From: a virus
Taxonomy: Duplodnaviria; Caudoviricetes
Virus record (IMG/VR): IMGVR_UViG_3300005719_000009
Coordinates: 12,125 to 76,124 of that record
Reading direction: 5' to 3' (one strand)
DNA length: 64,000 bases
In this document: piece by piece, positions 10,483 to 60,663 of the stretch
Layout of the letters: each line of letters opens with the position of its first letter
Position numbering within the stretch: the stretch's first letter is position 1
Position numbers and translations under genes: made by a program
Notes under the pieces: model-generated
Told to the model about the DNA's origin: nothing
The model's input: the letters and a program-made list of their open reading frames with translations, nothing else
Database searches by the model: none

Positions 10483-11019
10483 ATGAAACATTTAATCTTT
10501 GCCCTATTAATGGGGATCGGTATTGCCAGCATGGCACAGAACGGTGGCCAATATCCCGAAAACAATACAGCCAAACTTGAATACATGGGAGGCGGTAAAA
10601 TTAAGATCATAAACAAACAATCTTTCCCATGCGACTTCAAAGTGAACGACAGCAAGACTGAGAGCGATATAACAATCCCAGCCAATTCGAACTACCTGTA
10701 TCAACTGCCTCCTGACTTATTAACAAATATCCACTTTAAGGTTAAGTGCGTTACAAACAATGGCATTACTGACTTAGGATGGATTGAACTATTCTTAACG
10801 TCACTACCATTGAAGTTTGTTAGCTTCAGCACAACGAGAATATCAGACACAGAGTTCTGGGTTGACTTTGAAGTAGCAGAAGTAACAAACGTGAAACAAT
10901 TCAATATAAAAGCATCCTTAGATGCAAAGGTGTGGAAGGTTATTACTATCTTATTCCCTGATGAAATACAACCTAATCGTAAATATTCGGTAAAAATAAA
11001 TCTAAGTCAATGGAAATGA
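10483..11019 (+). CDS. secreted protein with host-like Ig-type 'LPV/LPL..F' module
   Basis: signal peptide MKHLIFALLMGIGIASMA then Q; C-terminal LPLKFVSF...FNIKASLDAKVW resembles modules of Bacteroidota T9SS cargo. Confidence 0.65.
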   Translation: MKHLIFALLMGIGIASMAQNGGQYPENNTAKLEYMGGGKIKIINKQSFPCDFKVNDSKTESDITIPANSNYLYQLPPDLLTNIHFKVKCVTNNGITDLGWIELFLTSLPLKFVSFSTTRISDTEFWVDFEVAEVTNVKQFNIKASLDAKVWKVITILFPDEIQPNRKYSVKINLSQWK

Positions 11020-12305: not shown

Positions 12306-12914
12306 TTAGTTAATAATCGCCTTGCATCTTTCGTAAAACATTTCCCGTTCATCGAGCCCGTTAAAGCCGCCATTAATCCTTAACGTTATATATTCAACAG
12401 GATGAATGTATTTTATTTTTTTCTGGTATTTAACTTTAATTAGAACATGATCCCCCATGTTGGCGATAGTGTTGAAATCATGATGCGCCCAATAATCACA
12501 GGCGCTCCACACGGCATAATTTGGTTCAGCCAACAACGTAGGATTACCCCTGAAATCTACGTGTGATCGCCCTGATTCATTCCACGATATAGTAGCCCTT
12601 GTATAATTAGCCGCTCCGGTTACCATAAATATCCCTCTCCCTTTATACAATCTACCATCCCCGTCTTTTTGAGGCGTATTACCTAAATCAACTCTTGTGT
12701 CGTATGCATCACCCGTAGCGTATTCTTGCAGAGAATTAAATGAATCCGTTTCGTACGCCGCCTGTGCTATAAAATGGCAATACTCCGATTTTGTATCTAT
12801 GCCATAATGCGGGAAATAATCATTCATGCGATCTGCCAATGGTGCCAAGAGCTTGTACCCGCTTTTTTTACTCCCCGGTGCAATTTGTTTAAGTATATCT
12901 GCTGTAATGATCAT
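12306..12914 (-). CDS. endolysin, glycoside hydrolase family 19
   Basis: HFIAQAAYET, DLGN...GDG..YKGRG, INGGFNGL..R motifs; ATG at 12914 overlaps the upstream stop. Confidence 0.9.
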   Translation of the reverse strand: MIITADILKQIAPGSKKSGYKLLAPLADRMNDYFPHYGIDTKSEYCHFIAQAAYETDSFNSLQEYATGDAYDTRVDLGNTPQKDGDGRLYKGRGIFMVTGAANYTRATISWNESGRSHVDFRGNPTLLAEPNYAVWSACDYWAHHDFNTIANMGDHVLIKVKYQKKIKYIHPVEYITLRINGGFNGLDEREMFYERCKAIIN

Positions 12915-13339
12915 AAAAATACCTTCCACGCAATAGTTATAGAATAAAACATCGAGTACCAGAATACGATTTTCTTGCCGTCATAGTCAATGCCAAATAT
13001 CCTCCTTTCAACCTTGTCCCACCACGCCTTAGGTGGATTAGCCGCAGACTGATGATACCACGGCAAATGTCTGCGCAAATTCAACGGAATGTCAAAAGAT
13101 AATTGCCGATTACAAAATGCAGACATACAATATACAATTACATCTATGTATGGAAATTTACACCACGTTATTTCAGGCTTATTTGCCAACCAGTAAAGAA
13201 TAATTGAAAATACAGCATACGAGATGAAATTTACGCCATGCGCAATAGCCTTATCTTTTAATATTCGGTATGCATCAATACGAGAATTGATCAGATTGAA
13301 CCCGACAAGACAGCATTGATTTACGAGATACGCAATCAT
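12911..13339 (-). CDS. multi-pass membrane protein (lysis region)
   Basis: several hydrophobic segments. Confidence 0.65.
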   Translation of the reverse strand: MIAYLVNQCCLVGFNLINSRIDAYRILKDKAIAHGVNFISYAVFSIILYWLANKPEITWCKFPYIDVIVYCMSAFCNRQLSFDIPLNLRRHLPWYHQSAANPPKAWWDKVERRIFGIDYDGKKIVFWYSMFYSITIAWKVFL

Positions 13340-13580: not shown

Positions 13581-14351
13581 TTACTTACGCCTTCTTAATG
13601 ACAGCGGTAAATTCATTTGTGTTTCAACCATTGTCCCATGTGTTCCCCAATAGCCCTTTACTCCATATTGCACCTTATACTTAGTTTGATACATTAAACC
13701 AACGCCAGCCATTTCAGGAAATGGCGACCATAAAACGCCCCATGAAAAATAAAGCTGCCCCTTAACGCCGGAGGCATTAACCGCATCCTTACTTATGTCC
13801 TTACTATCCTGAAGACTTTGGCCTAATTTTGATTTCTCTTGATCTTGTTGCGCTATCCTGTCTGTCTGTAGTTTTTCTTTAATACGTAACGAAAGTTTAA
13901 GCTGCTCATTATCTGACTTATATTGTTGCACTAATTTCTGCCCATTAGAAAGTTCAGTAAAACAACCATTACAATCAACTATAAATTCGTTTGGGACATA
14001 TGTATGTGACGTATCTGTATCCGGCGTGATTTCTTTATGCTTTGCAAGTAGCAAACTAATTCTTATATTCGCCACATCCAATTCATTGTTGATTCTTTCA
14101 ACCTGATTTTCTTTTATTTCTAATTGCCCATTAGCGACTTCCAGAGCGACTTCATAGTCTCTTTTGTTTGCCGCAAACTCAACGCTATCCCTTTTTGTTT
14201 TAGCAATAAGCGAATCATTTTTCGTTTTTAACTCATTACTTTCTTTAAAAGCATATTTTGCATTACCGCAACCTCTAAATAGCATAAATATCAATAAGGC
14301 CACACCAACAATTGATATTATAATAAGAACCGGACTAATTTTTATACTCAT
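13581..14351 (-). CDS. membrane-anchored coiled-coil protein, spanin-like
   Basis: N-terminal TM ending FRGC, long coiled coil, beta-rich aromatic C-terminus. Confidence 0.55.
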   Translation of the reverse strand: MSIKISPVLIIISIVGVALLIFMLFRGCGNAKYAFKESNELKTKNDSLIAKTKRDSVEFAANKRDYEVALEVANGQLEIKENQVERINNELDVANIRISLLLAKHKEITPDTDTSHTYVPNEFIVDCNGCFTELSNGQKLVQQYKSDNEQLKLSLRIKEKLQTDRIAQQDQEKSKLGQSLQDSKDISKDAVNASGVKGQLYFSWGVLWSPFPEMAGVGLMYQTKYKVQYGVKGYWGTHGTMVETQMNLPLSLRRRK

Positions 14352-15384: not shown

Positions 15385-15837
15385 TTAATTTTGACCGGGT
15401 AGTATTATTCCTTCCTTATCGGCTTGCGCCTTGAGTAGTTTTTCACTTTTACCGAAAATAAACCACCCTATATTTTGACACAAGTACCCGAATACTACTG
15501 CCACGACATTTAAAAAATTAATGAAATAAACCTTCCATTTAGCTGCCTCCATATTCTTTAGCTCTTCTTTGTTCAACTCCATATTTATGAAATTAGGAAG
15601 AACAAACAACCCTATCAGCAAAATTACTACAGCGAAAGCAAAAGATGCCGTTTCTTTTGTAAAATGCATCTTTAATGCATCTGAAAATGTTACCGTAGGT
15701 TTGTTCCTTTGTATCTCCCAGCTCTTTTTAAAGGCGTACGCTAATTGACCCAGAAACCAACCTATAACCAAGATTACATAATTACTCATTTCATTTGAAT
15801 TTATGTGATTATTTAATACTTCCTTATTAGCCTCCAC
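15385..15837 (-). CDS. three-TM membrane protein, holin candidate
   Basis: three hydrophobic segments; true start may be an internal Met. Confidence 0.6.
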   Translation of the reverse strand: MEANKEVLNNHINSNEMSNYVILVIGWFLGQLAYAFKKSWEIQRNKPTVTFSDALKMHFTKETASFAFAVVILLIGLFVLPNFINMELNKEELKNMEAAKWKVYFINFLNVVAVVFGYLCQNIGWFIFGKSEKLLKAQADKEGIILPGQN

Positions 15838-18800
15838 GCAAGAGACTGATCAACCATGAAATCATATGTTTTCCCCCAATCAAGTGTTGTAAATGTCGAC
15901 CCGGTAGCATTATCTGTTACAGCAGCGGACAAGCTATATTTGTTGCTGCCCGCTGAAAATCTCATAAGCAACGTCACCGACTGACCATTAATTACAGCAG
16001 ATGGCAATGTTAGTGTTCTCCCTGTTGTTAACACATCTGACACTTCTGCAATAATCGTATTAGACGCAACTGTGTAATCAGCATCGGTATTGTTCGCATC
16101 TACATCATACGTAATGCCAGAAAACAGATTAACCCTTCCGCTGGATGTAACGGTAAAGGCCGAAACTGTGCTGCCTCCTGTCCCAACAGATAAAGAATTA
16201 CCCCCGCCTGAAATAATTCTATTCCCCGCCAATGTTGCATCCCCGCTATACAATGTAGTTATAGATGAAGCGATGGAACTTTGTGCAACCTTTCTCACTA
16301 TACTATCCGCGCCAAGCACTAATACAGAGTCTGTACTCAGCCCGTTCCCTCTCACCCTCATCAACTTAACCGTGTCCGATACTCTTAAGGCTGTTCCTAT
16401 TATAGTTCCTTCTAAAGACGCATCCGTTTCCTGACCTATCCAAACCCTACTCGTACCGCCATTGCTTGAAGCTGCACCTATAACAACATTACCGGCAATT
16501 GAACCCGTGTTTCTATTAAATCCGTATAAGTAAACCTTATTAGATGCATCCGACCTATATTGACCTATAAATCCCGTAGATGATGTAACGCCACCGGTTA
16601 ATACGGACGCAGACGCAGATATATTATTATCGACAAAAAGTCCATTAGCCGTAGGGTTGGATGTTGAATTAATCACAACATTGCTACCAAAAGCATTCAA
16701 TCTAATTACACGCGTAGTTGAAAATGGAACACCACCTTGAACTTGTGCATCACCGTTATAAAATAAGTTTATTCCAGCGGTTGACATATTTGTTAAATCA
16801 ATCCCCGTAGCTGTTACACTTGTTCCTGATTTAATATATCCGTCAGTTTGTATAAGACTCGATTTTATTCCGCCATAAATGTTTATCGCCCCAAACTGTC
16901 TTTCGCTATTCGTAATTGGGGTATTCATTATAATAGAACTGTAAGGCATTTTAAGCAGCCTGCCAACACTATCTACCCCTAATGGTATTGTTTGCCCGCT
17001 TCCGGTTTTCAAATTTCTTACCACAATACTATCGAATTCGGATTGCCTGTTTACTATTAGCTGCCGCCCATTATCGTACGCGCTATAATGAAAGCTATCT
17101 ATGATAGCTTTCGTCCATATATCCTGCCCGGTAGAATCTGGGTGTAATGCATCTGGGATAATAGTAGTTCCATATTGTTGTGTTGCATTAAGCATATTAA
17201 CGAAACTGGTGCCATAAACTGTATGTATAGAATCTATTCCATTTACGTATTGCTGAATGCGTGCTAACGGGGTACTGAAAATAGTAAAGTATGCGGGACT
17301 TACTAATAGTATATCCCGCATGTAAGAACCCCAGCCACGCGCAATACATGTATCTAATGTTCTTTTCCACCATACAATAAAATTTACATATGTTAAGGTT
17401 GTTCCATTTTCATTAGTTATATCATTTGTACCAAACTCAAAAATTATACCTCTTAGCGAATCTGATTTAACCGGAATATTCGACAGCATTGTTGTATTGT
17501 TCTGCACTGTAGTCCCTGATTGACATAAGTTTCGCTCCCGCATACCAAAAAACCTCGTAACCTTCCCACTAAATCTTTGAGTTAAGGGTACGGTTAAACC
17601 GGATGAACCTGCGCCAATGGAATTTCCAAAAAAATACAACGCCGTGCCCGTGTCGGCAGATTTCCTAAGATACATTGACCTATCGGTTGCATTGCCTATC
17701 CTAAGAACTGTATCGATATTGGCGTTATTGGCCCCAACTCCACTGCCACTTCCGACCCAGCTTGCCATTGGTTGAATTAGCCCCGTTGTAGTGTTATACC
17801 CAATTGGTTTTATATTTGCAGTGTCTGTTTGTTGCGTTAAGGAAGGGAATCCATTAAATAATATTCTTCCTGTTGATTTCTGAATTATTATTCCAGTATA
17901 AATGCCAGAAACATTTTCCCCGATTTGAATACCCGTCGTTGAGTCTATTAATATACGCCTTGAATTTAATGGCTGAGTAGATATCAACTGTATGTGATCT
18001 TGATTAGCATACACTGTATTTATGCTACTAAAATCCTCATATCTTCCAGACATAACCGCATTCGTGTTATCTATAGTAAATCTGGTAGTACTCGCCACCC
18101 CATTAGCTGCTATAATATCAAGTTCATTTGTTCCTACGGATATGTTTGTTGTTTTAACTAAAGGGCCACCTAATTGAATCGTATCAGCATCCTTAGATAG
18201 ACCATTATTCGCATAAGAAGGGAATGACAATTGCGTTAAATCATATTGCGTTGCTATTTCTGTACTATCAACATCCGTAGTAATGGAGGTGGTAGTGGTA
18301 GTATGATTAATCCCAAATCCCGGATTCAATCTCTTAATTGTATCATTTATCAAAAGCGTATCTCCTGCCCCTGATGCATTTGCCAAAGGAGGCGTCAATG
18401 TCCCATTTGTTGCTGATGTGATTTGCCCTTTTGAATTAAAAGTAATATCACAATTCGTACAACTGCTACCAGTAATTACATCTATCAACGAAATCAATCC
18501 ACTCCCATTATCTGAAAAGTTGCTGGCACTGAATGTGGCGGCTCCTTTAGTTCCAGATGTATTTGCATTCGTTATGCCTATCGCACCAGTTGTTGAACTA
18601 TACGTTATTGGAGAGGTGCCAGACAACAACCCTCGTACTTTTAAGTAAAAATTTGGTATCGCTCCCGTATCGAGTGTTGCCAGCGTTCCGTTGCCGCGAA
18701 TATATTGCAGCGTAGTGCCAGCACCCGTAACCGAAAGAGTCCCGGCCCCCGTAACGGGAGAGTTGTTAACAGTAAACGCAGAAGGCATTGACAACCCAAC

Positions 18801-19277
18801 ACTTGTCACAGTCCCAGAACCGCTCGTATTAAATACATGAATAAATGACTCTGAGCCATTTTTTTGCTTAAACAAACTATCATTTCTGGAATAAACATTC
18901 TGAACCCATTTATTAGCAGTATCAATCTTTCTTAGGTACGGCAACAACATGGCTGTTGTATCAGAAATACTCAGCTTTAGGTTTATCCTATTACTTAATG
19001 AAGTCGTATCAATAGTAGTACCTATGCCATCTTGAATCCAGCGACTCCCAATCCAAATCCACTGAGTCGTGTCTACTCCGGGACGCGGCCATGTAATCGT
19101 CATGCCGAATTTAGTTGGAGTCCAACTTGTATCCCTACGCGAAACAACCGTGCCGGAGTCAGGCACGGTATATGTATTCTTAATCCATCCATTTATCGTT
19201 TGCGAAGGCACCCCGCTTTGAGATTGAGCGCTTAAATAAAACAAACAAAACAGTACTATATAAACTATATATCTCAT
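15813..19277 (-). CDS. tail-fibre-like protein with Sec signal peptide and SGNH/GDSL esterase domain
   Basis: signal peptide MRYIVYIVLFCLFYLSAQS then Q; fibre repeat GTVTSVGLSMPSAFTV..SPVT.AGTL; SGNH blocks FGNS, GTND, DALHP. Confidence 0.75.
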   Translation of the reverse strand: MRYIVYIVLFCLFYLSAQSQSGVPSQTINGWIKNTYTVPDSGTVVSRRDTSWTPTKFGMTITWPRPGVDTTQWIWIGSRWIQDGIGTTIDTTSLSNRINLKLSISDTTAMLLPYLRKIDTANKWVQNVYSRNDSLFKQKNGSESFIHVFNTSGSGTVTSVGLSMPSAFTVNNSPVTGAGTLSVTGAGTTLQYIRGNGTLATLDTGAIPNFYLKVRGLLSGTSPITYSSTTGAIGITNANTSGTKGAATFSASNFSDNGSGLISLIDVITGSSCTNCDITFNSKGQITSATNGTLTPPLANASGAGDTLLINDTIKRLNPGFGINHTTTTTSITTDVDSTEIATQYDLTQLSFPSYANNGLSKDADTIQLGGPLVKTTNISVGTNELDIIAANGVASTTRFTIDNTNAVMSGRYEDFSSINTVYANQDHIQLISTQPLNSRRILIDSTTGIQIGENVSGIYTGIIIQKSTGRILFNGFPSLTQQTDTANIKPIGYNTTTGLIQPMASWVGSGSGVGANNANIDTVLRIGNATDRSMYLRKSADTGTALYFFGNSIGAGSSGLTVPLTQRFSGKVTRFFGMRERNLCQSGTTVQNNTTMLSNIPVKSDSLRGIIFEFGTNDITNENGTTLTYVNFIVWWKRTLDTCIARGWGSYMRDILLVSPAYFTIFSTPLARIQQYVNGIDSIHTVYGTSFVNMLNATQQYGTTIIPDALHPDSTGQDIWTKAIIDSFHYSAYDNGRQLIVNRQSEFDSIVVRNLKTGSGQTIPLGVDSVGRLLKMPYSSIIMNTPITNSERQFGAINIYGGIKSSLIQTDGYIKSGTSVTATGIDLTNMSTAGINLFYNGDAQVQGGVPFSTTRVIRLNAFGSNVVINSTSNPTANGLFVDNNISASASVLTGGVTSSTGFIGQYRSDASNKVYLYGFNRNTGSIAGNVVIGAASSNGGTSRVWIGQETDASLEGTIIGTALRVSDTVKLMRVRGNGLSTDSVLVLGADSIVRKVAQSSIASSITTLYSGDATLAGNRIISGGGNSLSVGTGGSTVSAFTVTSSGRVNLFSGITYDVDANNTDADYTVASNTIIAEVSDVLTTGRTLTLPSAVINGQSVTLLMRFSAGSNKYSLSAAVTDNATGSTFTTLDWGKTYDFMVDQSLAWRLIRKY

Positions 19278-19885
19278 AATGCAATATATTGTAATCCTTG
19301 TATAACAAATAGATCGTTGTTTTGGAATGAGGTTCCCGTTGGCCCTATTGTAATCGTAACAGATGTTGGCGTATATACGGGCGTAAATGAAACTCTATCA
19401 GTTGCGCCAATAGGCAACTCAACGCCATCCTTGATCACAAATATAGATTTATCAATAATCCCGCTCAACGACAAAACAATTTGCGTTTGCCCATTAGTTG
19501 GCAATGTTACATTAACGCCATTTACACTCTGAGGCGACGATGTGACCCCAACGGTAAACTGCAAGTATACTTGCTGAATTGTAGAAATAACGCCTGTTGC
19601 CGGATTCACGATTGTGCCACTGCCGCCACTTCCTATTATTTGCAATGCCTGTCCGACAAAAGGCTGACACAATGAAAAAAGATAATTCATCCTACCGGCT
19701 AAAGAGCTACTTGATGGGTTGTAACTATTCAGCCAGTTAACAGCACTCTTTACAATGTATATTAATCTGGATAATCCAGTACGTTCATATTTGCCGCGAA
19801 ACAAATACCCTTTGGATTCTGAATCTTTAGCCAGAAACTGACACACATCCGCTATTTGCAATATTTCCGTTACAGTGTATGCCAT
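19274..19885 (-). CDS. putative virion or fibre-attachment protein
   Basis: helical N-terminal half and beta-rich C-terminal half; translationally coupled to the fibre gene. Confidence 0.55.
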   Translation of the reverse strand: MAYTVTEILQIADVCQFLAKDSESKGYLFRGKYERTGLSRLIYIVKSAVNWLNSYNPSSSSLAGRMNYLFSLCQPFVGQALQIIGSGGSGTIVNPATGVISTIQQVYLQFTVGVTSSPQSVNGVNVTLPTNGQTQIVLSLSGIIDKSIFVIKDGVELPIGATDRVSFTPVYTPTSVTITIGPTGTSFQNNDLFVIQGLQYIAL

Positions 19886-28269: not shown

Positions 28270-28662
28270 TTAAATACTTAAAAGTGTTATTAAATTATTC
28301 GACTTTTCCACCCTCATCCCAAATCTTTTTAGAAAATTTATGGCCCTTGTATTAACATTGAAAAGGAAACATTCAAAATGCTCCCCCACGTTGTCTTTAA
28401 TAAATTCAGAAAAAAGAATAAGATTCTCCTTGTTTCTAAATTTCGGATTTAGACAGAAACTTATCAACAGTCGTTCCGAATAAAATACATACCCAATTTC
28501 CGAATTTACAAAAATACATTTCCTATCACGTGAATGTTCAACTATTTTTCTATACACATCTTCAGCCGCCTCTTCTATAGTTGTGACCATACTTGTCGGG
28601 TCGTAGTACCTTAAAAGATCAACATCTTCTTTGAAATGATTGTATATATCTTCTTTCATCAT
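28270..28662 (-). CDS. GNAT-fold virion assembly protein (T7 gp13-like position)
   Basis: NTRAINFLKRFGM acetyltransferase-like motif; between tail tube and ejection genes; ATGA overlap at 28659-28662. Confidence 0.6.
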   Translation of the reverse strand: MMKEDIYNHFKEDVDLLRYYDPTSMVTTIEEAAEDVYRKIVEHSRDRKCIFVNSEIGYVFYSERLLISFCLNPKFRNKENLILFSEFIKDNVGEHFECFLFNVNTRAINFLKRFGMRVEKSNNLITLLSI

Positions 28663-31600
28663 AAATTTCTCGGATCGGCCTTCCACGTTACATATGGCGC
28701 GTATAAATACGAGTCAGTATTTCCAGAATAAGACAACTTGACTATGATAATATTCCCCGTCATATAATCGCCTTCCCATAATGCAACGGCTTCGTCCGAC
28801 ATGCTATTTTGATCTCTATTAAAGGCGGCATATCTACTTGGGTTTTCAAGAATATCAAAATCCTCTTCCATAATCAGGCTTTCCTGCTGAACCAACGTTT
28901 GACTATTTACCCTATTAGTTGCAATATCCCCTTTCGTTGGCGCGGCCCATGTTTTATTACTCTGATAAGAAATGGCATTGAATACCTTCTTTACCGCCTC
29001 CGATTCATTAAACACGACCGTTATGCTTGGCGTATATTGTACTCCAAAAAAATTAGAAACAAATGCATCACTACTTTGCTCCCACAATTCGCCATTCTTA
29101 AACGCATATAATTTGTTTTCTGCACAAATTATACTATCTGCATCAATGTCTATTTTCGAATAAAATGAATTATATGATTCTTCGAAAGCGAAAACCTCAC
29201 CCGGAGCATCTTGCGTACCTTGCGCCAAAAGCAAATATTCGGCAACATTATCCGGTCTTATATTAAACGTTCCAAGCACCTTTTGTTTACCTCCAAATTC
29301 GTAATCTCCCGGATTCAAGTATTTTGGCAGATTGTCAGAAGCCCATGTTTTCACTTTATACAGCTCCGAGAGGTCAGTCATGCCATCCCTCGACAGCCTC
29401 CATATAACGTTTTTAATTGGGTCAACCCCATAATAAACAAAGCCACTTTGCACAACGCTCATCGGCAAAGACCCAACCCCATATTCTCCTGCATAATATT
29501 GGACATTATTTTTCGTAATTATACCATCAGTAGTTACAACTTGATTATTGCCATCATTACTCGCGATATACTTAGAATATATTCCAGTTTGCCCACATTT
29601 TCGTTCTTGGAAAAACGTAAGCACCCTATCCCATACACTCATACGCATAATGCCTCCCTTAGATCGATCCACTGTGTCAAAATTCTCCGGGTAAAACCGG
29701 CTTGTTTGATTGACGTTAGTATCCTCCTGATATGGCATAGACCATCTGTGCATTGTAGGGTATGTTACCCGGTTTGCATTTTCATCAAATATCCACTCCC
29801 TCCCATTTGAGTTTACCGCAGACTGATAATAATCGGAAAAATTCGGGTCAATGCATTTTTGACTTATAACATGGTCAATGGTAAATGTTAATTCTGATGC
29901 CGAAAACGTTATGCTTCTTTTTTTGCTCCCTACGGATGCAGCAATTAAAAATATCCTGTCGTTTTCTAATGTAATAGAACTATTAATTGTAAACGTATGC
30001 GCCCCTTCAGAGGCATCAAACGCCCCTACTAAATTCAATTGATCAGTATATATATTCTGCAAATAAATTCGCCATGCATCACCCCCCGGATTCACTTCCC
30101 CAAAAGTCAGCGTTATTGTTCCTGAAATTTTAAATGTTGTAGAAGCTACTGCCTTTAAAAACCACCGGGAGTCCGCTGGCGGATCAAAGCTGCCGCCTAA
30201 ATTTGCTAAAGGAGCGCTTTGCGCCGTTACATTAGAATCAGTATATGTTGACCCGGTAAAATTCAATCCTATTAAAAACGTATCGCTTTGGCTCCCAGTG
30301 CTGCCTTGCGTTACAGAATATCTATATACATTCCCTGTTTGTATAGCTCTGTTTTTAATGTAAAAATCCCCTTTAAAAAATTCGTACGTAGCCGGTGTGG
30401 CATAATTCGATGTTTGATTTTGAAGCATGCCTTGATGAAATCTATTGCTTAGTGTCGGATTGGCAATGGCATATCTCTGACCAAATTCATAATACAAATT
30501 AAGATTATTTGCTACCGGGCGCGCTGGCGTATAAATCTCAATAAAATAATTATCGTACCCAGTTCCAAAATCAAAAGACCCGTCTGTTGGCGGTAGTATG
30601 ATTTTAATAAATTGACCGGATTTCGCTTCCCCATTTATTGCCGGGTTTATTACTGATGCGACCACTTCATAGTCCCGTACATCGCCATATATATTCGCTG
30701 TTGACCCGTCTCCATTATAACGCTTCATTACCTTTACACGGTCCCCCGGCGTGAACCCATAGGCAAGTGGACTTCCGGGATTTAAATTAACAAACGCATT
30801 CAATGACTCAATACTGAAATATGCGTATTTCACAATCCCCGTTATATCTACTGTATCCTTAAATGTTCTATCTGAAATCCATTGAACAAAAGTTTGCTTA
30901 CTAAGGTCTTTTGTCCGAACCCATTGAAAATAATAAGCCCAATCAGGTGGCTGATGATAAATACTGGCCAAAAAACGCTGAATAAACGGCGACGTAGGAG
31001 ATGCCTCCAAATACGCCAAAGATGTGACAGAAAAACCAGATGTATATACGGCACCATTTGTCCTGTATTTTTCATCAAAATACACAATCGCATAGCCATG
31101 CCTGCTCGACCAATCATACGCGGGGAAAGATGTGTTGATAGTCGAATTGTATGAATAATCTGACAATATATTAGTTCTTGCCAAACTAATTCCGGCCTTA
31201 GAAATATACAAATCATTAGGCCCACTACTTATTATGGTGTACCCTTGCGAAAGAGCGTCTACCCTTAACCCCTCAATCACCGCTGCGGCATCATCCCCGG
31301 TAGAAAGAGAATACGATACCGTTGATCCGTTTGTTAAATAAACCACATAATCATCAAGAGAAGACGATGGGGATTGAACTGTGCCCCTCACAACTATATG
31401 TATAACCCCCGTCCCAAACCCACTTTTCCCGTCTTGATTTGCTATCAAATTACTGAACAATACCCCGCTGTAGTACGGCGTCACATCGGATTGCGTTATG
31501 TTGCTTGTGTTGCCATTAAATGAAAAATCCGTTAAATTAGGGTACCCCTCTGTTACGTTACCGTAATCAAGCGTGTTGCCGTTTAATAGGGCTTGCGCTA

Positions 31601-32558
31601 TACAAGCCTGTGGCACGTAGTCCTGCAACTGATCGCTTTCCGCAATTAAAATATTATTATACCCTTTGTCATTATAGAATAGATATGTTGCTATGTCATT
31701 ATCCGGTATCCCTTCTGCGTCTTTATCAATTGAGGCTATAACATACCAATCACTCATTACATTCCCGAAAGAATGTGCTGCCATTAATTCCACCTTTCTC
31801 ACATTAGCTGGCCCTGTTTGATATGTTATTGCAATCCTACAATTTTTTGTAGGATCGGCATCGGTAGTCTGATCAAATGCATTGTATGGTATTGGCATTT
31901 CACTTTGACTACTTGTTATTGACTTATCGTGATCGTCGAAATCCCACCTTGTTTTAAAGCGAAATATTTTTTTTCTTAAATTATTTACAATACTTGATGC
32001 ATCATTTTCATAAACAACGTACGGCGGTATGTCTGCTGGCTCTTTTGCAACATCTATATAAGATCGCTGTATACTACCATACCCAGAAGCTAATGCCCGA
32101 TCTATGTTTATTTTAGTCGGCCTCCCAATAGAATCTACAAAATACAATATATCCCCCTGCGTACTATCCCCATATATAACATCGATATTGTACAAGATAT
32201 TAGCCGTAAACGCAAGAGGATCGCCGGTTGTATTTATACCTACCTCTATTAACCTTTGAAATGTCTTGGGGATGGTGTTATATACATAAATACCGTGATT
32301 GCCACTTGAATTATAGTTAAAAACATAAATACGCTTTGATATTGTATCGTACTTGTTTCCTATGTTTTTATTCACCCCAACTATAGGAAGTAAAGGGTTG
32401 GCCAAAAGTAAGTTGCCAGCCTTAACCTTTACGCGCCTGTTTGGGGGCACCCCATCAAACTCAACATTCCTTGCATCTCGATGCAATACCTTCCCTATCG
32501 ATTCCAGTGGAGAATCCAAATCAAGTGTGCCTGCTAATTGTTTTAATTCCGTTGGCAT
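28659..32558 (-). CDS. tail tubular/nozzle (stabilisation) protein
   Basis: 1299 aa, beta-rich; N- and C-terminal motifs (DARNV, YGVDP, FFGVQY) typical of podovirus nozzle proteins. Confidence 0.7.
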   Translation of the reverse strand: MPTELKQLAGTLDLDSPLESIGKVLHRDARNVEFDGVPPNRRVKVKAGNLLLANPLLPIVGVNKNIGNKYDTISKRIYVFNYNSSGNHGIYVYNTIPKTFQRLIEVGINTTGDPLAFTANILYNIDVIYGDSTQGDILYFVDSIGRPTKINIDRALASGYGSIQRSYIDVAKEPADIPPYVVYENDASSIVNNLRKKIFRFKTRWDFDDHDKSITSSQSEMPIPYNAFDQTTDADPTKNCRIAITYQTGPANVRKVELMAAHSFGNVMSDWYVIASIDKDAEGIPDNDIATYLFYNDKGYNNILIAESDQLQDYVPQACIAQALLNGNTLDYGNVTEGYPNLTDFSFNGNTSNITQSDVTPYYSGVLFSNLIANQDGKSGFGTGVIHIVVRGTVQSPSSSLDDYVVYLTNGSTVSYSLSTGDDAAAVIEGLRVDALSQGYTIISSGPNDLYISKAGISLARTNILSDYSYNSTINTSFPAYDWSSRHGYAIVYFDEKYRTNGAVYTSGFSVTSLAYLEASPTSPFIQRFLASIYHQPPDWAYYFQWVRTKDLSKQTFVQWISDRTFKDTVDITGIVKYAYFSIESLNAFVNLNPGSPLAYGFTPGDRVKVMKRYNGDGSTANIYGDVRDYEVVASVINPAINGEAKSGQFIKIILPPTDGSFDFGTGYDNYFIEIYTPARPVANNLNLYYEFGQRYAIANPTLSNRFHQGMLQNQTSNYATPATYEFFKGDFYIKNRAIQTGNVYRYSVTQGSTGSQSDTFLIGLNFTGSTYTDSNVTAQSAPLANLGGSFDPPADSRWFLKAVASTTFKISGTITLTFGEVNPGGDAWRIYLQNIYTDQLNLVGAFDASEGAHTFTINSSITLENDRIFLIAASVGSKKRSITFSASELTFTIDHVISQKCIDPNFSDYYQSAVNSNGREWIFDENANRVTYPTMHRWSMPYQEDTNVNQTSRFYPENFDTVDRSKGGIMRMSVWDRVLTFFQERKCGQTGIYSKYIASNDGNNQVVTTDGIITKNNVQYYAGEYGVGSLPMSVVQSGFVYYGVDPIKNVIWRLSRDGMTDLSELYKVKTWASDNLPKYLNPGDYEFGGKQKVLGTFNIRPDNVAEYLLLAQGTQDAPGEVFAFEESYNSFYSKIDIDADSIICAENKLYAFKNGELWEQSSDAFVSNFFGVQYTPSITVVFNESEAVKKVFNAISYQSNKTWAAPTKGDIATNRVNSQTLVQQESLIMEEDFDILENPSRYAAFNRDQNSMSDEAVALWEGDYMTGNIIIVKLSYSGNTDSYLYAPYVTWKADPRNL

Positions 32559-46025: not shown

Positions 46026-46054
46026 AAAAACCGCTCTACTGGGCGGTTTTTTTT
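46026..46054. terminator. bidirectional intrinsic terminator
   Basis: AAAAACCGCTC-TACT-GGGCGGTTTTTTTT between convergent genes. Confidence 0.8.
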
Positions 46055-46890
46055 ATTCTTTCCCTAACCTTTTCATAGTACTGTTTCGATGTTCCATTTA
46101 ATTCATGGAAGTAACTCTCTAATCCCTCCTGTGCAAAAAAATCATACGCCTTTTCACCAATAGGAATACAGTTAGGAGCAGCCCCGCACAATTCTAATAT
46201 TCTGGGAACCTTTTGCCCTTCCGATAATTGAAATGCCTGCGTTTGGTTTGTAATATGAAACTTGCACTGCTTAATAGCCTGTGCAAGCTCTAAAAAGTTA
46301 TTAACATTCAGCTTCCTTATGTTCAGATCATGGGTCATGGTGAACACATTGTATTCGCGCATTGTGCCACAAAACAACAAATCGTCTTCATAAGGCTTCA
46401 GGAATGAATAGTTGATGTTGTGGTTCAAATACCGCTCTGACCGGGTAATGAGGATTTTACCTTTTGCGAAATCTTTTTCAGCATCAGGTACATTTAACCA
46501 TACGCCTGAAAGATCACATGCCATGTCTGGATATACGTAGAAATACCACCGGTTAATCGAAAAAGAAGGCATACCCACGTATGTATCTCTGAATGCCCCT
46601 AATGGCACTTCAATTTCCTCGCCATCCCATGTTTTAACATCGGCTATACAAGGCTGTTCCATTAGCAGGGGGATCATCATATCGATCATTTTTTGATTTA
46701 GCATGACCTGCTTACCGTCTTCTGATTTTGTCGGATGCACGGCCCCTTCGTAATATAACGCTGGTATATCCTTGACTAAATAAAGAATTATCCTCCTTTT
46801 TGTCTTTCTATAAAACTCATTCATTGCTGGTATACTCGCGTGTACGTCACCGATATTTCCCGTGTGGGAGAATGTGGCTAATTTTTCCAT
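46036..46890 (-). CDS. glycosyltransferase, GT-B fold (GT9-like)
   Basis: N-terminal TGNIGDVHASIPAM; C-terminal LELAQAIKQCKFHITNQT. Confidence 0.65.
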   Translation of the reverse strand: MEKLATFSHTGNIGDVHASIPAMNEFYRKTKRRIILYLVKDIPALYYEGAVHPTKSEDGKQVMLNQKMIDMMIPLLMEQPCIADVKTWDGEEIEVPLGAFRDTYVGMPSFSINRWYFYVYPDMACDLSGVWLNVPDAEKDFAKGKILITRSERYLNHNINYSFLKPYEDDLLFCGTMREYNVFTMTHDLNIRKLNVNNFLELAQAIKQCKFHITNQTQAFQLSEGQKVPRILELCGAAPNCIPIGEKAYDFFAQEGLESYFHELNGTSKQYYEKVRERIKKTAQ

Positions 46891-47513
46891 TTCTTATTTT
46901 GCTTTATTTTTTTAATATGTGAAATGCTTACTTTGTATCTTTCTGAAAGTGCCTTATCCGATTCTAATGATGCTCTTATGTTGTATGCTTGTTGTATCGA
47001 TAACTTAGTGCTGCTCCTGTTTTGATTATTAACAGAGGCGGTAACAAATGAACATCTTTCAGGAGAGTATAAGTCGGGCGTTACCCCTAACTGATTAGCT
47101 TTAATGTCTTTATCCAATTGAAGTCCTTCCTTCCAGCCGTTTTCTATAGCCCAATTAAAAAACGAAACAAAGTTTTTATCCCATATATCACAAACACGAA
47201 CTCCTTTGTCTACGTAATTTTTATGTGATGCATGATTTTTGCTCCTGCATCTTGCCTTCATGCCCTTCCAGACATCGTACAAGGGATGTTCCCTGTACTC
47301 GAAAGTAGTTCTTGGCGTTCTATTACAACCGCAACTTTTCCAATGCCCCCTATTCAACTCATAGCCAACAACTATCTTTTCATTCCCACAATCGCATAAA
47401 CAAAGAAACCTTGTTGCCTTGTTATTTGATGGCATCTTTTCTTTTACTAAAAGCATTCCGAATCTTTGGCCGATCAGGTCAAGTCTTTTGGGGCCTCCCT
47501 TATTCACCATCAC
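46878..47513 (-). CDS. HNH-type homing endonuclease-like protein
   Basis: DLIGQRFGMLLV...CLCDCGNEK, VWKGMKARC, GVRVC..W...F..F..W, QLDK, YSPERC.F...SVNNQN. Confidence 0.8.
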   Translation of the reverse strand: MMVNKGGPKRLDLIGQRFGMLLVKEKMPSNNKATRFLCLCDCGNEKIVVGYELNRGHWKSCGCNRTPRTTFEYREHPLYDVWKGMKARCRSKNHASHKNYVDKGVRVCDIWDKNFVSFFNWAIENGWKEGLQLDKDIKANQLGVTPDLYSPERCSFVTASVNNQNRSSTKLSIQQAYNIRASLESDKALSERYKVSISHIKKIKQNKKWKN

Positions 47514-47698
47514 TGAATATCTTTAATCAGCCACAAATATATTTCTTCTGCGTTTTCCAATAACGTACTTGTTACATGAGCCTGACCGGTGCTTTGGGCG
47601 TACTGAACAGCTAATTTTCTACAGGCAATTTTTTCTATATTAACCCATAATTCGTGTTGTGCTTTTTGGTTGCTTTTTGAAATTTCTTCTGGTGTCAT
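47510..47698 (-). CDS. small phage hypothetical protein
   Basis: MTPEEIS...RKLAVQYA...LENAEEIYLWL. Confidence 0.65.
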   Translation of the reverse strand: MTPEEISKSNQKAQHELWVNIEKIACRKLAVQYAQSTGQAHVTSTLLENAEEIYLWLIKDIQ

Positions 47699-47718
47699 AT
47701 TTTTATTTTTTGATGTTC

Positions 47719-47982
47719 TTAATTTCCGTTGCCGTCTTTGAAACACTCATATAATTTAGGATTTTCTGTTTTGTCTTTTTTTAATAATTCATATTCATCT
47801 GTCCAATTAATATTACCATACTTTTCAATCAGCTTAGGCATATAATCTGGCACAATAAAATTCATGTTCTGAAGTAGATTCCTTGTGTTTGGTACTCCCG
47901 GTGGCTTTACCTGAAGCTGAGTAATAATATCTGGTGCCACCACAATCATAACTATTTGCCTCAAAAAACTACCTCTATTCAT
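47719..47982 (-). CDS. small protein containing a copy of the MCP N-terminal arm
   Basis: NFIVPDYMPKLIEKYGN vs MCP NFVIPDYIPGLIAKYGN (12/17 identical); Tat-like start MNRGSFLR. Confidence 0.75.
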   Translation of the reverse strand: MNRGSFLRQIVMIVVAPDIITQLQVKPPGVPNTRNLLQNMNFIVPDYMPKLIEKYGNINWTDEYELLKKDKTENPKLYECFKDGNGN

Positions 47983-49016
47983 GCTGGTATTTTTTGATGA
48001 TTAGGTAATGTTTCGTAAAGTTGTTCCGGGATGGTTTGCTTTATTTTAGCAACATCCGAATCATTAAGCTGCGTATCGTGATATGCAGATATTGCCCATA
48101 AATGCGTTAACCCATTCTCCATAATCGTTCTTTCCTGTTGTTGTCTTTCTTTTCCCGGCAACCATCTAACCTCTGTTGGGATATTATAAATCTTTTTATT
48201 ATTTGCCAATAACCAATAGTTAAACCATTGGCCCGGTTCGTACCCAATTCTGTATATTATTTTTGCCCGATTATCCAATAGTAAATTCGGAACATCATCA
48301 GAGTATGTTCGTTGCCCATATGTTCTTACTGATTCCTGTAATCTTCCCATGCCGTTATGCATAGGCCCGACAACAGGCATGTAGTGAGTAGCCTTTTGCT
48401 CTGCCTTCTGCGGGAAATATGGTTTATATCCTTCAGACAACTCAATATAATCTTCCGGGCAAATCAAAAAGTTATTGACTATGCTTTTATGAACCATAAT
48501 ATGGCAAGCAAAAGACTCCTTCATAGCCATATTCGGGAAATAAAAATACTCTATATTTTTGCAATACAAAGCTGCTTCAAGCCATGCGCCTCTTCTGTAT
48601 AATGCACCTGCCGGATGCATATAAGCGCCACCAGATAATTCAAGGTGAGAACCAGCAGCATCACAACCAGAGTCTATGAATTGCAAATAATAATCCAGCC
48701 AACCTTCCTTAGTTGGGAAGCTATCGCTCTCCATGCATATAACCCATTCATTGGAGGCCATTTCAAATAGCACATCATACCCTATGCCATGTGATTGCAG
48801 CTTATCTTTAGGATACGGGAACACGGTTATTTGATCTTTGAATGGTTCAAGATATTTTATACTCCCATCATCTGCGTTGTTGTCGCATATGAGTATTTCA
48901 ATGTCATGATCGCCTTTATACTTTAATATTTGCGCAACAGTATAGGCTGTCATTTTGCCTGTCTTCCAGTGGCATAAAATTATGCTAAACTTCATTTTAT
49001 GTTTATTTTTTTTCAA
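47979..49016 (-). CDS. glycosyltransferase, GT-A fold (GT2-like)
   Basis: FSIILCHW, EILICDNNADDGS, VICMESDSFP. Confidence 0.8.
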   Translation of the reverse strand: MKKNKHKMKFSIILCHWKTGKMTAYTVAQILKYKGDHDIEILICDNNADDGSIKYLEPFKDQITVFPYPKDKLQSHGIGYDVLFEMASNEWVICMESDSFPTKEGWLDYYLQFIDSGCDAAGSHLELSGGAYMHPAGALYRRGAWLEAALYCKNIEYFYFPNMAMKESFACHIMVHKSIVNNFLICPEDYIELSEGYKPYFPQKAEQKATHYMPVVGPMHNGMGRLQESVRTYGQRTYSDDVPNLLLDNRAKIIYRIGYEPGQWFNYWLLANNKKIYNIPTEVRWLPGKERQQQERTIMENGLTHLWAISAYHDTQLNDSDVAKIKQTIPEQLYETLPNHQKIPA

Positions 49017-49314
49017 CTACCCATTTGTACCCGTCATAATCAAATGTAATAGCAGTTACATCTGGCCATGAAACAACCTTATACGTGTTTAACGATTCAG
49101 CATATTTAACAAACTCTTCATATTCTATGCCTGTAAGATACAATCTCGACATGAATGAGGCCGGAGCGCCAGCATAGTCCAATATTCTCGCATACGCTTT
49201 CAATAAACCAGAGCAACTAATTTCACCAGTAAATGAATTATCTGTGTATAAATCATTGCTTTTAAAGAATGCCAACAATCTTCTGCAATTTTCAATAATT
49301 GTCTCTCTGGTCAT
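49003..49314 (-). CDS. hypothetical protein
   Basis: 103 aa within the modification cluster. Confidence 0.6.
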   Translation of the reverse strand: MTRETIIENCRRLLAFFKSNDLYTDNSFTGEISCSGLLKAYARILDYAGAPASFMSRLYLTGIEYEEFVKYAESLNTYKVVSWPDVTAITFDYDGYKWVVEKK

Positions 49315-49315
49315 T

Positions 49316-50137
49316 TTAATTTTTTTTGCCTAAAAAAAGAGGGTTCCCTTGATACTCAATTCCAATATTGCTTTCAAATCTTTGTTTTTCAAATTCGTTA
49401 TTTGAATAAATGTCTTTTAGATACATATTCTTATCTCGTCTCTCAAACGCAGCATATCTATCCCCTTTTTTAAGCAAGCGTTCCTTCATGCTGTTATAGT
49501 TTTCAGTTGCGAATTTTACCCACCCCGGATCGGTACCCCCTAAGTTATCTATATCATCTACAATAGACATGTAATTTTTAAAATACACAATCTCCTTTAC
49601 ATCGTTAAAAACTTGCGCTTTAAATGAATTATCCATGTCTTTTTCCAAATCTGCCATACGAAACGCCGCCTTATGGTATGGCCTAAAATCGCTGTACCCT
49701 ATAGGTACCAAAGATTCATGTATTCTGCCTGACCATTTCAATTCGTGTCTGTTATAGAATCTAAACCATCTATGCGGATCGGTAGCGTGATCAAAGTAAT
49801 AACAATTGTAATCAGGGCATACAATATTCAAAATGCCATTATCTTTTTCAATAATTTCACTTGTATTCAAATACAGGATAGTACTATTAAATGCCCACCC
49901 TGCCAAAATATTAAGTATTGAGCTAAACCCGTTATGGAAGATATAGTCGAATGGAACTGGTATTATTTTCAAGTTGAATATGTGACGATAAGATTGCAAT
50001 ATCTCTCTATCTTCATCAAAAAGAAGCATATCGCCATATACTATTTCGTCGCATATTGTTGACAATGATTCGAATGTTTTCCTTAGAACCTTAACATTGC
50101 CACATCCCATCGTAATTCCAGTAATACCTGTTTTCAT
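49316..50137 (-). CDS. glycosyltransferase, GT2-like (degenerate DxD region)
   Basis: LRKTFESLSTICDEIVYGD, ILYLNTSE, RFYNR...KWSGRIHESL. Confidence 0.7.
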   Translation of the reverse strand: MKTGITGITMGCGNVKVLRKTFESLSTICDEIVYGDMLLFDEDREILQSYRHIFNLKIIPVPFDYIFHNGFSSILNILAGWAFNSTILYLNTSEIIEKDNGILNIVCPDYNCYYFDHATDPHRWFRFYNRHELKWSGRIHESLVPIGYSDFRPYHKAAFRMADLEKDMDNSFKAQVFNDVKEIVYFKNYMSIVDDIDNLGGTDPGWVKFATENYNSMKERLLKKGDRYAAFERRDKNMYLKDIYSNNEFEKQRFESNIGIEYQGNPLFLGKKN

Positions 50138-50784
50138 TTTACATCTTTAAATTTAACGTATAAACGACAATTGTCATCAAAGTGCCTTTTGGGAATAAAC
50201 CCCTTCATGCACATCAAAAGGTCAAATGAATGGTGCGAGAAGATAGTGCTATGACCGGCTTCGGGGGCCAAATATACATAATCTTCAAGTTCAACATTAT
50301 CTCTTTTTGCTACATCCAGAAAGCCGGTTTCAAAATATGCGAGGCCACCCATAACCAATGAACGATTAATAACATCCAACTCCATGAACGGGCTGCTGCA
50401 ATGTTCAATACACTCTACGCAAGTAACAACATGAAATTTGTTTTTTTCGGGCAGCTTTATGAAATCTTCATTGTAGGCATCATATCCAACGGCATTATAT
50501 CCAGCTTTATTCAAGTCATTAACAAGCCATCCATAACCGCAGCCAAAATCAAGAACATGAACATCTTCTTTTTTTATGCCGTTGGTCATAGTAGCTATAC
50601 GATCTATGCGTATTGGATTTTGGGTTACATTTCTGCCTTCGTGATGTTGCCCACCTACTAACCCTGTTTGATCAATAGGGTCACTAAAAACAACCTTACA
50701 GGATTCGCATTGGCAATACTCTGTGTTTTGTTTTACAATTCTTAAAGGGGCCGGATTATTGCAAATAGGACAATTTTTTTTCAT
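50134..50784 (-). CDS. class I SAM-dependent methyltransferase with N-terminal Zn ribbon
   Basis: CPIC/CESC; VLDFGCGYG; GYDAY; VVTCVECIEH. Confidence 0.85.
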   Translation of the reverse strand: MKKNCPICNNPAPLRIVKQNTEYCQCESCKVVFSDPIDQTGLVGGQHHEGRNVTQNPIRIDRIATMTNGIKKEDVHVLDFGCGYGWLVNDLNKAGYNAVGYDAYNEDFIKLPEKNKFHVVTCVECIEHCSSPFMELDVINRSLVMGGLAYFETGFLDVAKRDNVELEDYVYLAPEAGHSTIFSHHSFDLLMCMKGFIPKRHFDDNCRLYVKFKDVK

Positions 50785-60219: not shown

Positions 60220-60663
60220 ATGAAAAAGCAATTTTTAATTTTAATTTCCGTAATTTATTTGTCATCATGTTCTGAGAATTATTCTAATGGCGAACGAATT
60301 GGATTGGTTACACAATTTTCTAATTCAGGTCAATTCTGGAAATCATGGGAGGGTCATTTAAACATGACGCAAACAGGCATGAACAGCAGCACCCCATTCG
60401 ACTTTTCCATAGACAATGATAACGAGCCGGAAGGCTTAGTGAAAGTATTGGATAGCGCTGCAACATTAGGCTGGAAGGTTAAAATAGTATACCACGAAAC
60501 AAACTTCAAAAACATTTTTAAAAATAGAGGGGAAACAGATCACTTTGTTACAAAGTGCGAAATACTTGATCGATCACCAATCCAAACGGCATTTGGCAAC
60601 ACACACCAAAATACAGGAAGAGTTATAGACACAATTTATGTAGTAATTGATAAAACAAAATAA
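60220..60663 (+). CDS. phage lipoprotein
   Basis: lipobox LSSC; YSNGERIG....S..G..WKSWEG. Confidence 0.8.
   Translation: MKKQFLILISVIYLSSCSENYSNGERIGLVTQFSNSGQFWKSWEGHLNMTQTGMNSSTPFDFSIDNDNEPEGLVKVLDSAATLGWKVKIVYHETNFKNIFKNRGETDHFVTKCEILDRSPIQTAFGNTHQNTGRVIDTIYVVIDKTK

Follow-up and report, generated by a model that had tools for sequence, protein, structure and literature searches.

As far as is known, tailed-phage virions are produced and put together entirely in the cytoplasm. Receptor-binding proteins of the tailspike and tail-fibre type, such as TSP4 of phage CBA120 and gp83 of Acinetobacter phage Solidus, are not known to carry signal peptides and fold inside the cytoplasm, and the SGNH deacetylase spikes of G7C-like phages are an example of receptor-modifying enzyme domains. 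Here we describe P0001, a protein of 1154 amino acids (aa) encoded within a 64-kb window (the whole stretch of DNA that was analysed) of the IMG/VR virus record IMGVR_UViG_3300005719_000009, which comprises 76,124 bp. Like the known receptor-binding proteins, P0001 combines a fixed N-terminal part with an exchangeable enzyme domain, has intact esterase blocks, ends in a C-terminal beta-sandwich of the tailspike type (Z 8–10) and is encoded by the last tail gene. Unlike them, it belongs to a family with a conserved leader for Sec export and signal peptidase I (SPI) and with a 2.7- to 3.2-fold excess of O-glycosylation sequons. P0001 is a tailspike-type receptor-binding esterase with a proposed maturation route that we found described nowhere.

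On balance, we read P0001 as the receptor-binding fibre or spike of a crAss/Pachyviridae-like podovirus of Bacteroidota, which would be exported, glycosylated and docked onto particles at lysis. A sequence-only reading of this DNA had proposed that the fibre is exported, glycosylated by the host system and either joins particles at lysis or decorates the infected cell. The export leader, the selected sequon and the identification of a receptor-binding esterase encoded where the tail module ends stood up in family-wide and control comparisons. Cleavage, glycosylation and pyroglutamate formation would follow from established Bacteroidota biology; of all the steps, docking onto particles at lysis is the least certain.

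The rules that P0001 appears to follow are known from cellular proteins. Gln at position +1 is the Bacteroidota-specific Q-rule for SPI substrates (PMC5837995, PMC10653852). The O-glycosylation motif of these bacteria is glycosylated in non-cytoplasmic proteins only, engineered motifs are used, and the system works across species; glycoproteomics gives an acceptor preference of L, I, V, T, A, S and M, and Glu is not tolerated (PMC12871550). P0001 resembles such substrates in its predicted Gln at +1, its D-S/T-(L/I/V/T/A/M) motifs and an enrichment that is confined to non-cytoplasmic proteins, but the known substrates are all cellular. A word search for "phage" in the O-glycosylation review (PMC12871550) gave no hit, and we found no description in the literature of tailed-phage fibres that have signal peptides or sequons for host O-glycosylation. 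A survey of Porphyromonas phages lists five Q-rule proteins of unknown function (PMC10367356). In a study of Bacteroides phages, the absence of signal peptides was taken as support for phage origin (PMC6199706), as is done in annotation practice.

Two further systems invite comparison. The MAT fibres of Bdellovibrio (PMC10769870) have a signal peptide and a conserved N-terminal domain, as P0001 does; in MATs this domain comprises ∼130 aa, is beta-rich and is followed by a phage-like trimeric fibre with variable tips. These proteins indicate that phage-like fibres can fold after Sec export. Unlike P0001, they are cellular adhesins of a predatory proteobacterium and lie outside any virion operon, and no sequence match of P0001 to any solved chain was found. 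Glycosylation of mycobacteriophage virions is attributed to phage-encoded glycosyltransferases that act on capsid and tail-tube proteins in the cytoplasm. With these virions (virion glycosylation in mycobacteriophages is mentioned in PMC11256854) P0001 would share glycans on structural proteins of a tailed phage, but its route would be en-bloc transfer by the host to a host sequon in the periplasm after Sec export.

The gene and its parts are as follows.

15813–19277, minus strand: P0001, leader-bearing fibre/esterase of 1154 aa (list of open reading frames (ORFs) and translation; 701 homologues).

19221–19277, minus strand: predicted Sec/SPI signal peptide, residues 1–17 or 1–19 (sequence; 114 of 120 homologues).

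18828–19220, minus strand: mature N-terminal domain, approximately residues 20–150, with a presumed attachment role (conservation profile; carries sequons D90, D119 and D133).

18378–18827, minus strand: phage fibre module, approximately residues 151–300, with the conserved CxxC pair C273/C276 at 18450–18461 (the family's most conserved stretch).

17121–17633, minus strand: SGNH/GDSL esterase domain, residues 549–719 (PF13472, E 7.9e-8).

15816–16115, minus strand: C-terminal beta-sandwich of the tailspike type, residues 1055–1154 (AlphaFold model, predicted local distance difference test (pLDDT) 70–90).

The 1154-residue reading frame is present at 15813–19277 as first described, and its strand is minus. 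P0001 starts with MR, followed by SAQSQ after a stretch of 13 hydrophobic residues, which lies within the ∼7–15 expected of an h-region. Cleavage before Gln, as the sequence-only reading had it, is predicted at either of two candidate sites, A17|Q18 or S19|Q20 (contexts L-S-A|Q and A-Q-S|Q), both of which place Gln at +1. Arg2 makes the n-region positive, and Q20 is the residue that lines up with the Gln conserved in the family. Our homologue statistics cover 120 listed of the 701 homologues. A leader is found in 114 of these, and the remaining six are either fragments or gene calls with a start within the leader. All 114 leader-bearing homologues have Gln after the h-region, with a median of 18 residues before it; the n-region has a charge of at least +1 in 113, position −1 is Ala, Ser or Gly in 110, and position −3 is Ala, Val, Ser, Gly, Thr or Leu in 108. 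While its sequence drifts, the family keeps the charge, the h-region, the small residues at −1/−3 and the Gln at +1.

A profile of the mature N-terminus matches 1065 clusters (50% identity) at E values up to 0.001, a count that includes proteins with the fibre module alone, as the profile also spanned that module. The match starts at residues 19–23 of nearly every strong representative, and 69 of the 81 profile-matched representatives outside the 120 homologues carry a leader. These observations strongly support the prediction that P0001 is made with a Bacteroidota Sec/SPI leader that is cleaved before Gln. Several other explanations of the N-terminus were considered and rejected. A dual start that would yield a leaderless cytoplasmic isoform is not compatible with the 12 genes inspected, none of which has a conserved in-frame start after the leader. 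An artefact of start-codon choice is contradicted by the ATGA coupling to the upstream gene and by protein-level conservation of residues 20–58. There is no lipobox for signal peptidase II (SPII), Cys11 being preceded by L-F and not conserved, and a signal-anchor-release (SAR) element, typically a weakly hydrophobic helix with much Gly and Ala, does not agree with an h-region rich in Ile, Val, Leu, Phe and Tyr.

P0001 contains 59 Asp residues, of which 26 are followed by Ser or Thr and 20 match D-[ST]-[AILVMT]; the earlier hand counts are exact. The third residues of the six non-canonical sites are G, S, G, G, C and F. Of the seven D-[ST] pairs within residues 1–135, five belong to canonical sites. 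The density is well above that of shuffled sequences. Global shuffles give 6.15 ± 2.33 sequons, and 20 is reached in 0 of 20,000; when residues are shuffled locally, within blocks of 20, 40 or 80, the value is 6.4 ± 2.3, and 20 is again never reached in 5000. The reversed motif occurs six times, with 6.2 expected, and motifs with Glu, Asn, Gln, Gly, Lys, Ala or Ser in place of the first Asp are present at about the expected frequency (∼1-fold). The Ser/Thr content of P0001 does not explain its sequon excess.

The excess extends to the family: 119 homologues contain 1778 sequons versus 656 expected (2.7-fold), with a per-protein minimum of 1.36-fold. Among the homologues, the third residues enriched after D-S/T are Leu (2.1), Ile (1.85), Thr (1.77), Val (1.64), Ala (1.22) and Met (1.19), and all others are below 1 (Phe 0.32, Tyr 0.45, Trp 0.29); Glu at the first position scores 0.54. 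Sequons D90, D119 and D133 are kept in 82–91% of aligned homologues. The variable part taken alone is enriched 2.3-fold in sequons in 117 of the 120 homologues, although the positions of these sequons vary between proteins; this pattern points to selection on sequon density.

We compared these values with leaderless phage proteins in a control set consisting of 11 related phages and the phage that encodes P0001. The fibres are enriched 2.78-fold, whereas 265 leaderless proteins show 0.70-fold and 13 leaderless virion proteins of at least 1000 aa show 0.41-fold the expected number of sequons. Within the phage itself no other protein is enriched (three sequons versus 4.2 expected in a 1694-aa protein, six versus 5.2 in the 1299-aa muzzle protein). 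Across the control set, 43 other leader-bearing or N-terminally anchored proteins are enriched 3.37-fold. Other phages have the fibre module of P0001 in 44 fibre genes without a leader; among carriers of the module, these 44 show 0.62-fold and three leader-bearing proteins 2.07-fold the expected number.

These data bear on the alternative that the N-terminus is not a working export signal but an uncleaved tether or a buried segment of a cytoplasmic fibre, and that the excess of D-S/T-hydrophobic triplets reflects beta-rich structure. Such a protein would conform to the otherwise cytoplasmic fibres of tailed phages, and the residue at −3 of A17|Q18 is Leu, which is less favoured. Nevertheless, we consider this alternative very unlikely. 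The 13-residue h-region is too short for a stable anchor, and charge, h-region, small −1/−3 residues and Gln at +1 persist despite the drift in sequence. The excess is not seen in leaderless fibres with the same module (0.62-fold) but is shared by small, unrelated proteins with a leader in the control phages (3.37-fold). Moreover, the third-residue spectrum argues against a mere beta-strand preference, which would favour the depleted residues Phe, Tyr and Trp. Selection for the O-glycosylation motif in the P0001 family and export of its members are well supported by the family statistics and three independent controls at the level of sequence. Given the substrate rules of the review cited above, a motif-bearing protein that enters the Bacteroidota periplasm is expected to be glycosylated, and by this analogy there is a strong case that P0001 would be.

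The domain architecture of P0001 is that of a receptor-binding protein. Conservation is highest at residues ∼150–300; residues ∼20–150 are conserved, residues 300–1000 are variable and residues 1000–1154 are moderately conserved. The homologues have the N-terminal 20–35% of the protein in common and differ in their C-terminal parts, which contain SGNH, SASA esterase, BNR_2 sialidase or Pectate_lyase_3 domains. A fixed anchor with exchangeable enzyme domains is a classic signature of receptor-binding proteins. The phage-fibre repeats of the sequence-only reading correspond to a module (residues ∼150–265) that is indeed common to many phage fibre genes, but it is present in a single copy in P0001. 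The SGNH esterase domain was correctly recognised; it matches PF13472 with 33.4 bits versus a cut-off of 32.9, is the only Pfam match in P0001 and contains all four catalytic blocks (GNS553, G588, GTN618D and D709-ALH712). The CxxC pair is likewise present (C273/C276), with further Cys residues at 11, 585 and 644.

The full-length AlphaFold model of P0001 is poor (mean pLDDT 46.7), and residues 1055–1154 alone are confidently predicted; the SGNH fold is not recovered (pLDDT below 40 in this region). Residues 1055–1154 superimpose on the tailspike of Acinetobacter phage Solidus, gp83 (24qj_A), with Z 10.0 and a root-mean-square deviation (rmsd) of 2.3 over 87 aligned residues (VIA-align). Other matches are 6o38_A (Z 9.4), CBA120 TSP4 (Z 8.4 and 8.3) and a Klebsiella phage baseplate chain (Z 8.1). 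Five chains reach Z values of at least 8, and all except 6o38 are phage tailspike or baseplate entries by title. Sequence searches of the PDB with P0001 and with the N-terminal profile returned nothing relevant, and in an ESM Atlas look-up with residues 18–150 all scores were below 0.9. Taken together, domain content and fold strongly support the prediction that P0001 is a receptor-binding esterase of the tail-fibre/tailspike type.

The C-terminal domain is also where type IX secretion (T9SS) would leave its mark. According to this alternative, a C-terminal sorting domain takes the protein across the outer membrane, for display or release before lysis. T9SS cargo has an N-terminal leader and a C-terminal beta-sandwich, and the final ∼150 residues of P0001 are moderately conserved across the family. 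However, no sorting-domain match was found in Pfam (E up to 0.01) or NCBIfam (E up to 0.1), and the best structural matches listed for the domain are phage tailspike domains, although absence from that listing does not in itself rule out a family. We consider secretion by this route very unlikely.

Some relatives deviate in length or gene structure. One of them (L005, 10001–13797) has the fibre gene in two parts, as overlapping ORFs of 319 and 960 aa, through either a frameshift or an assembly error. Much longer leader-bearing fibres also occur (L016, 8882–15856; P0151, P0163): one of 2324 aa has 25 sequons versus 8.6 expected, a second of 2151 aa has 61 sequons versus 21 and matches in 37 stretches, which are copies of the module, and a third of 1335 aa has 42 sequons versus 8.3.

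The genes that place P0001 in the tail module are the following.

19274–19885, minus strand: upstream 203-aa gene, leaderless and syntenic (ATGA overlap with P0001; no family match).

15385–15789, minus strand: downstream holin-like membrane protein that opens the lysis cassette (sequence and relatives; likely start ATG 15789).

12306–12929, minus strand: endolysin without a leader that closes the lysis cassette (phrog_181, E 2e-38).

28659–32558, minus strand: muzzle-type tail protein, 1299 aa, leaderless (PF25729 crAss_MUZ_C; BLASTP matches to phi18:3 gp114 and crAss001 gp44).

Translational coupling of P0001 to a cytoplasmic structural gene had been proposed, and the ATG of P0001 does overlap the TGA of the leaderless 203-aa upstream gene as ATGA. 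The lysis cassette begins ∼24 nt past the P0001 stop codon. Gene order is identical in 11 related phages (a Gly-rich protein, a 500-aa protein, a protein of 1630–1940 aa, three small proteins, the fibre and the lysis genes), and by this strict synteny P0001 is the final gene of the tail module, as originally placed, with the lysis cassette next. A PHROGs search assigned neither P0001 nor the three small upstream genes to a family. CheckV rates the 76,124-bp record as complete, and the 12 kb at the start of the genome that precede the window contain small early genes only. P0001 is the sole fibre-like or receptor-binding-like gene of this complete genome.

The genome has a GC content of 38.8% and the gene set of a tailed phage, with large terminase, portal, GroEL and endolysin. 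It also has virion proteins that match PHROGs centred on proteins of Cellulophaga phages. Among cultured phages, the closest terminases (∼29% identity) are those of the Cellulophaga podoviruses phi46:3, phi18:3, phi13:2 and phi19:3 (Pachyviridae) and of Flavobacterium elemoviruses, and the muzzle, ring-like and capsid proteins match phi18:3 gp114, gp113, gp112 and gp104. Cellular matches to the fibre module are found only in Chryseobacterium, one metagenome-assembled genome (MAG) of Flavobacteriales and one Chitinophagaceae MAG. Because of the terminase relatives, the structural matches to phi18:3 and the cellular and prophage matches, the predicted host is a member of the Bacteroidota, at phylum level.

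Based on these data, we propose the following maturation route. P0001 would be made as a Sec preprotein and cross the inner membrane unfolded. SPI would cut ahead of Gln, which a host cyclase would convert to pyroglutamate. In the periplasm, the fibre would fold and trimerise, the CxxC pair could oxidise, and the general O-glycosylation system of the host would add its glycan at ∼20 D-S/T-x sites. Meanwhile, capsid-tail particles would be assembled in the cytoplasm. Once the envelope is breached by the holin/endolysin cassette, both pools would mix, and the fibres would dock via their N-terminal domain. In classical work on P22, tail spikes were reportedly added in vitro to spikeless particles, so docking after lysis is physically reasonable.

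The closest positional counterparts in a cultured phage are gp085, gp086 and gp087 of phi18:3 (Pachyviridae, NC_021794; L003 32891–38583). This phage has a related tail core, and the three genes directly precede its lysis cassette; all three proteins start with MK, a hydrophobic stretch and (S/A)Q, which amounts to a leader with Gln. Their annotation as virion or tail proteins is "based on experimental MS/MS proteomics" (MS, mass spectrometry), and none of the eight other translated phi18:3 virion proteins with MS-based annotation (gp104, gp112–115, gp120, gp121 and gp123) has a leader. We found no paper that mentions the leaders of gp085–087. The positional analogy indirectly supports a virion fate for P0001.

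Several observations weigh against a virion fate reached in this way. In contrast to P0001, gp085–087 show no sequon excess (one observed versus ∼3 expected in each) and have no detectable sequence similarity to it, so that the analogy is positional only; as they are leader-bearing yet sequon-poor, export and glycosylation appear to be separable. MS of purified particles can also detect abundant secreted proteins. We know of no in vivo precedent for a long trimeric fibre that is made in the periplasm and docks after lysis. The fibres gp22–26 of PhicrAss001 have no leader and were therefore rejected as a cultured precedent, and the translated Elemovirus proteins, annotated tail fibres included, likewise have none. 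A tblastn search of 50,697 cultured phage records with the whole of P0001 and with residues 1–330 found no match. Modelling of mature residues 1–308 with an 11-sequence alignment gave no usable N-terminal fold (pLDDT 37.6). Finally, the Sec-exported phage-like fibres of Bdellovibrio serve the cell itself (PMC10769870).

The last point also favours the alternative that P0001 is an exported and glycosylated enzyme or adhesin of the host envelope and not a virion component. On the infected cell, or as free enzyme, it would de-O-acetylate the receptor, and in this way block superinfection and keep progeny off debris; its N-terminal domain would anchor to a component of the host envelope, as in the Bdellovibrio MAT adhesins. 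Leader and sequons would suit any exported protein, the enzymatic domain is of the receptor-destroying kind, and the Q-rule proteins encoded by Porphyromonas phages are thought to modify the host surface (PMC10367356). On the other hand, P0001 is the only fibre-like or receptor-binding-like gene product of a complete genome, and it is translationally coupled within a virion operon whose synteny is strictly conserved. In addition, it has its fibre module in common with leaderless tail fibres and its C-terminal fold in common with tailspikes, and its positional analogues in phi18:3 are reported in virions. We regard a purely non-virion function as unlikely, but a receptor-destroying role on the infected cell is a serious rival and may coexist with a role in the virion.

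If P0001 is a fibre of the particle, the route may extend well beyond this phage. We tentatively suggest, as a generalisation that is possible and not the more probable outcome, that a large crAss/Pachyviridae-like clade builds its virions in two compartments: fibreless particles in the cytoplasm and pyroglutamate-capped, disulfide-bonded, glycan-coated fibres in the periplasm, which would be joined only at lysis, so that the progeny would bear the producing cell's species-specific O-glycan. The size of this clade is based on the ∼1000 clusters (50% identity) that match the fibre N-terminal region at E values up to 0.001, some of them via the repeat module alone.

Were this correct, the infectious particle would be completed only at lysis, and part of the virion would gain a host periplasmic O-glycan, pyroglutamate and disulfides. 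The host-specific glycan may mark or shield progeny, with consequences for protease resistance, immune recognition in the gut or the environment, adsorption and host range, and the esterase may act from within on the envelope of the producing cell. Such fibres would not mature properly in Escherichia coli. Pipelines that discard leader-bearing proteins would miss the receptor-binding proteins of many Bacteroidota phages.

Several other genes of the phage deserve mention. A 178-aa protein with a Q-rule leader (MKHLIFALLMGIGIASMAQ) is encoded at 10483–11019 (plus strand), just past the endolysin gene and on the opposite strand. Its leader is kept in relatives (L007 18659–19216 and L008 20222–20806), and it is predicted to be a second exported phage protein. 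In a 256-aa protein of the lysis cassette (13581–14351, minus strand), a conserved [KR]-G-C comes after a membrane helix at the N-terminus. Homologues of this protein in the related phages inspected contain one to five sequons versus ∼0.6 expected; the protein may belong to the envelope as a spanin-like component and may be glycosylated as well. A predicted 147-aa lipoprotein in the early region (60220–60663, plus strand), with a leader ending in LSSC, has two sequons versus 0.5 expected.

Between the replication and head genes (46036–50784, minus strand) lie a methyltransferase (PF13489), a GT2 glycosyltransferase (PF00535) and two further unassigned genes. An effect of GT2 on the lipid-linked O-glycan of the host is a possibility. 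The GT2 protein is 70% identical in two of three near-complete relatives and absent from the third; a strict link between GT2 and leader-bearing fibres was rejected on these grounds. The 1299-aa muzzle-domain virion protein (28659–32558, minus strand) also matches phi18:3 gp115, and its crassvirus muzzle C-terminal domain links Pachyviridae-like and crAss-like tails.

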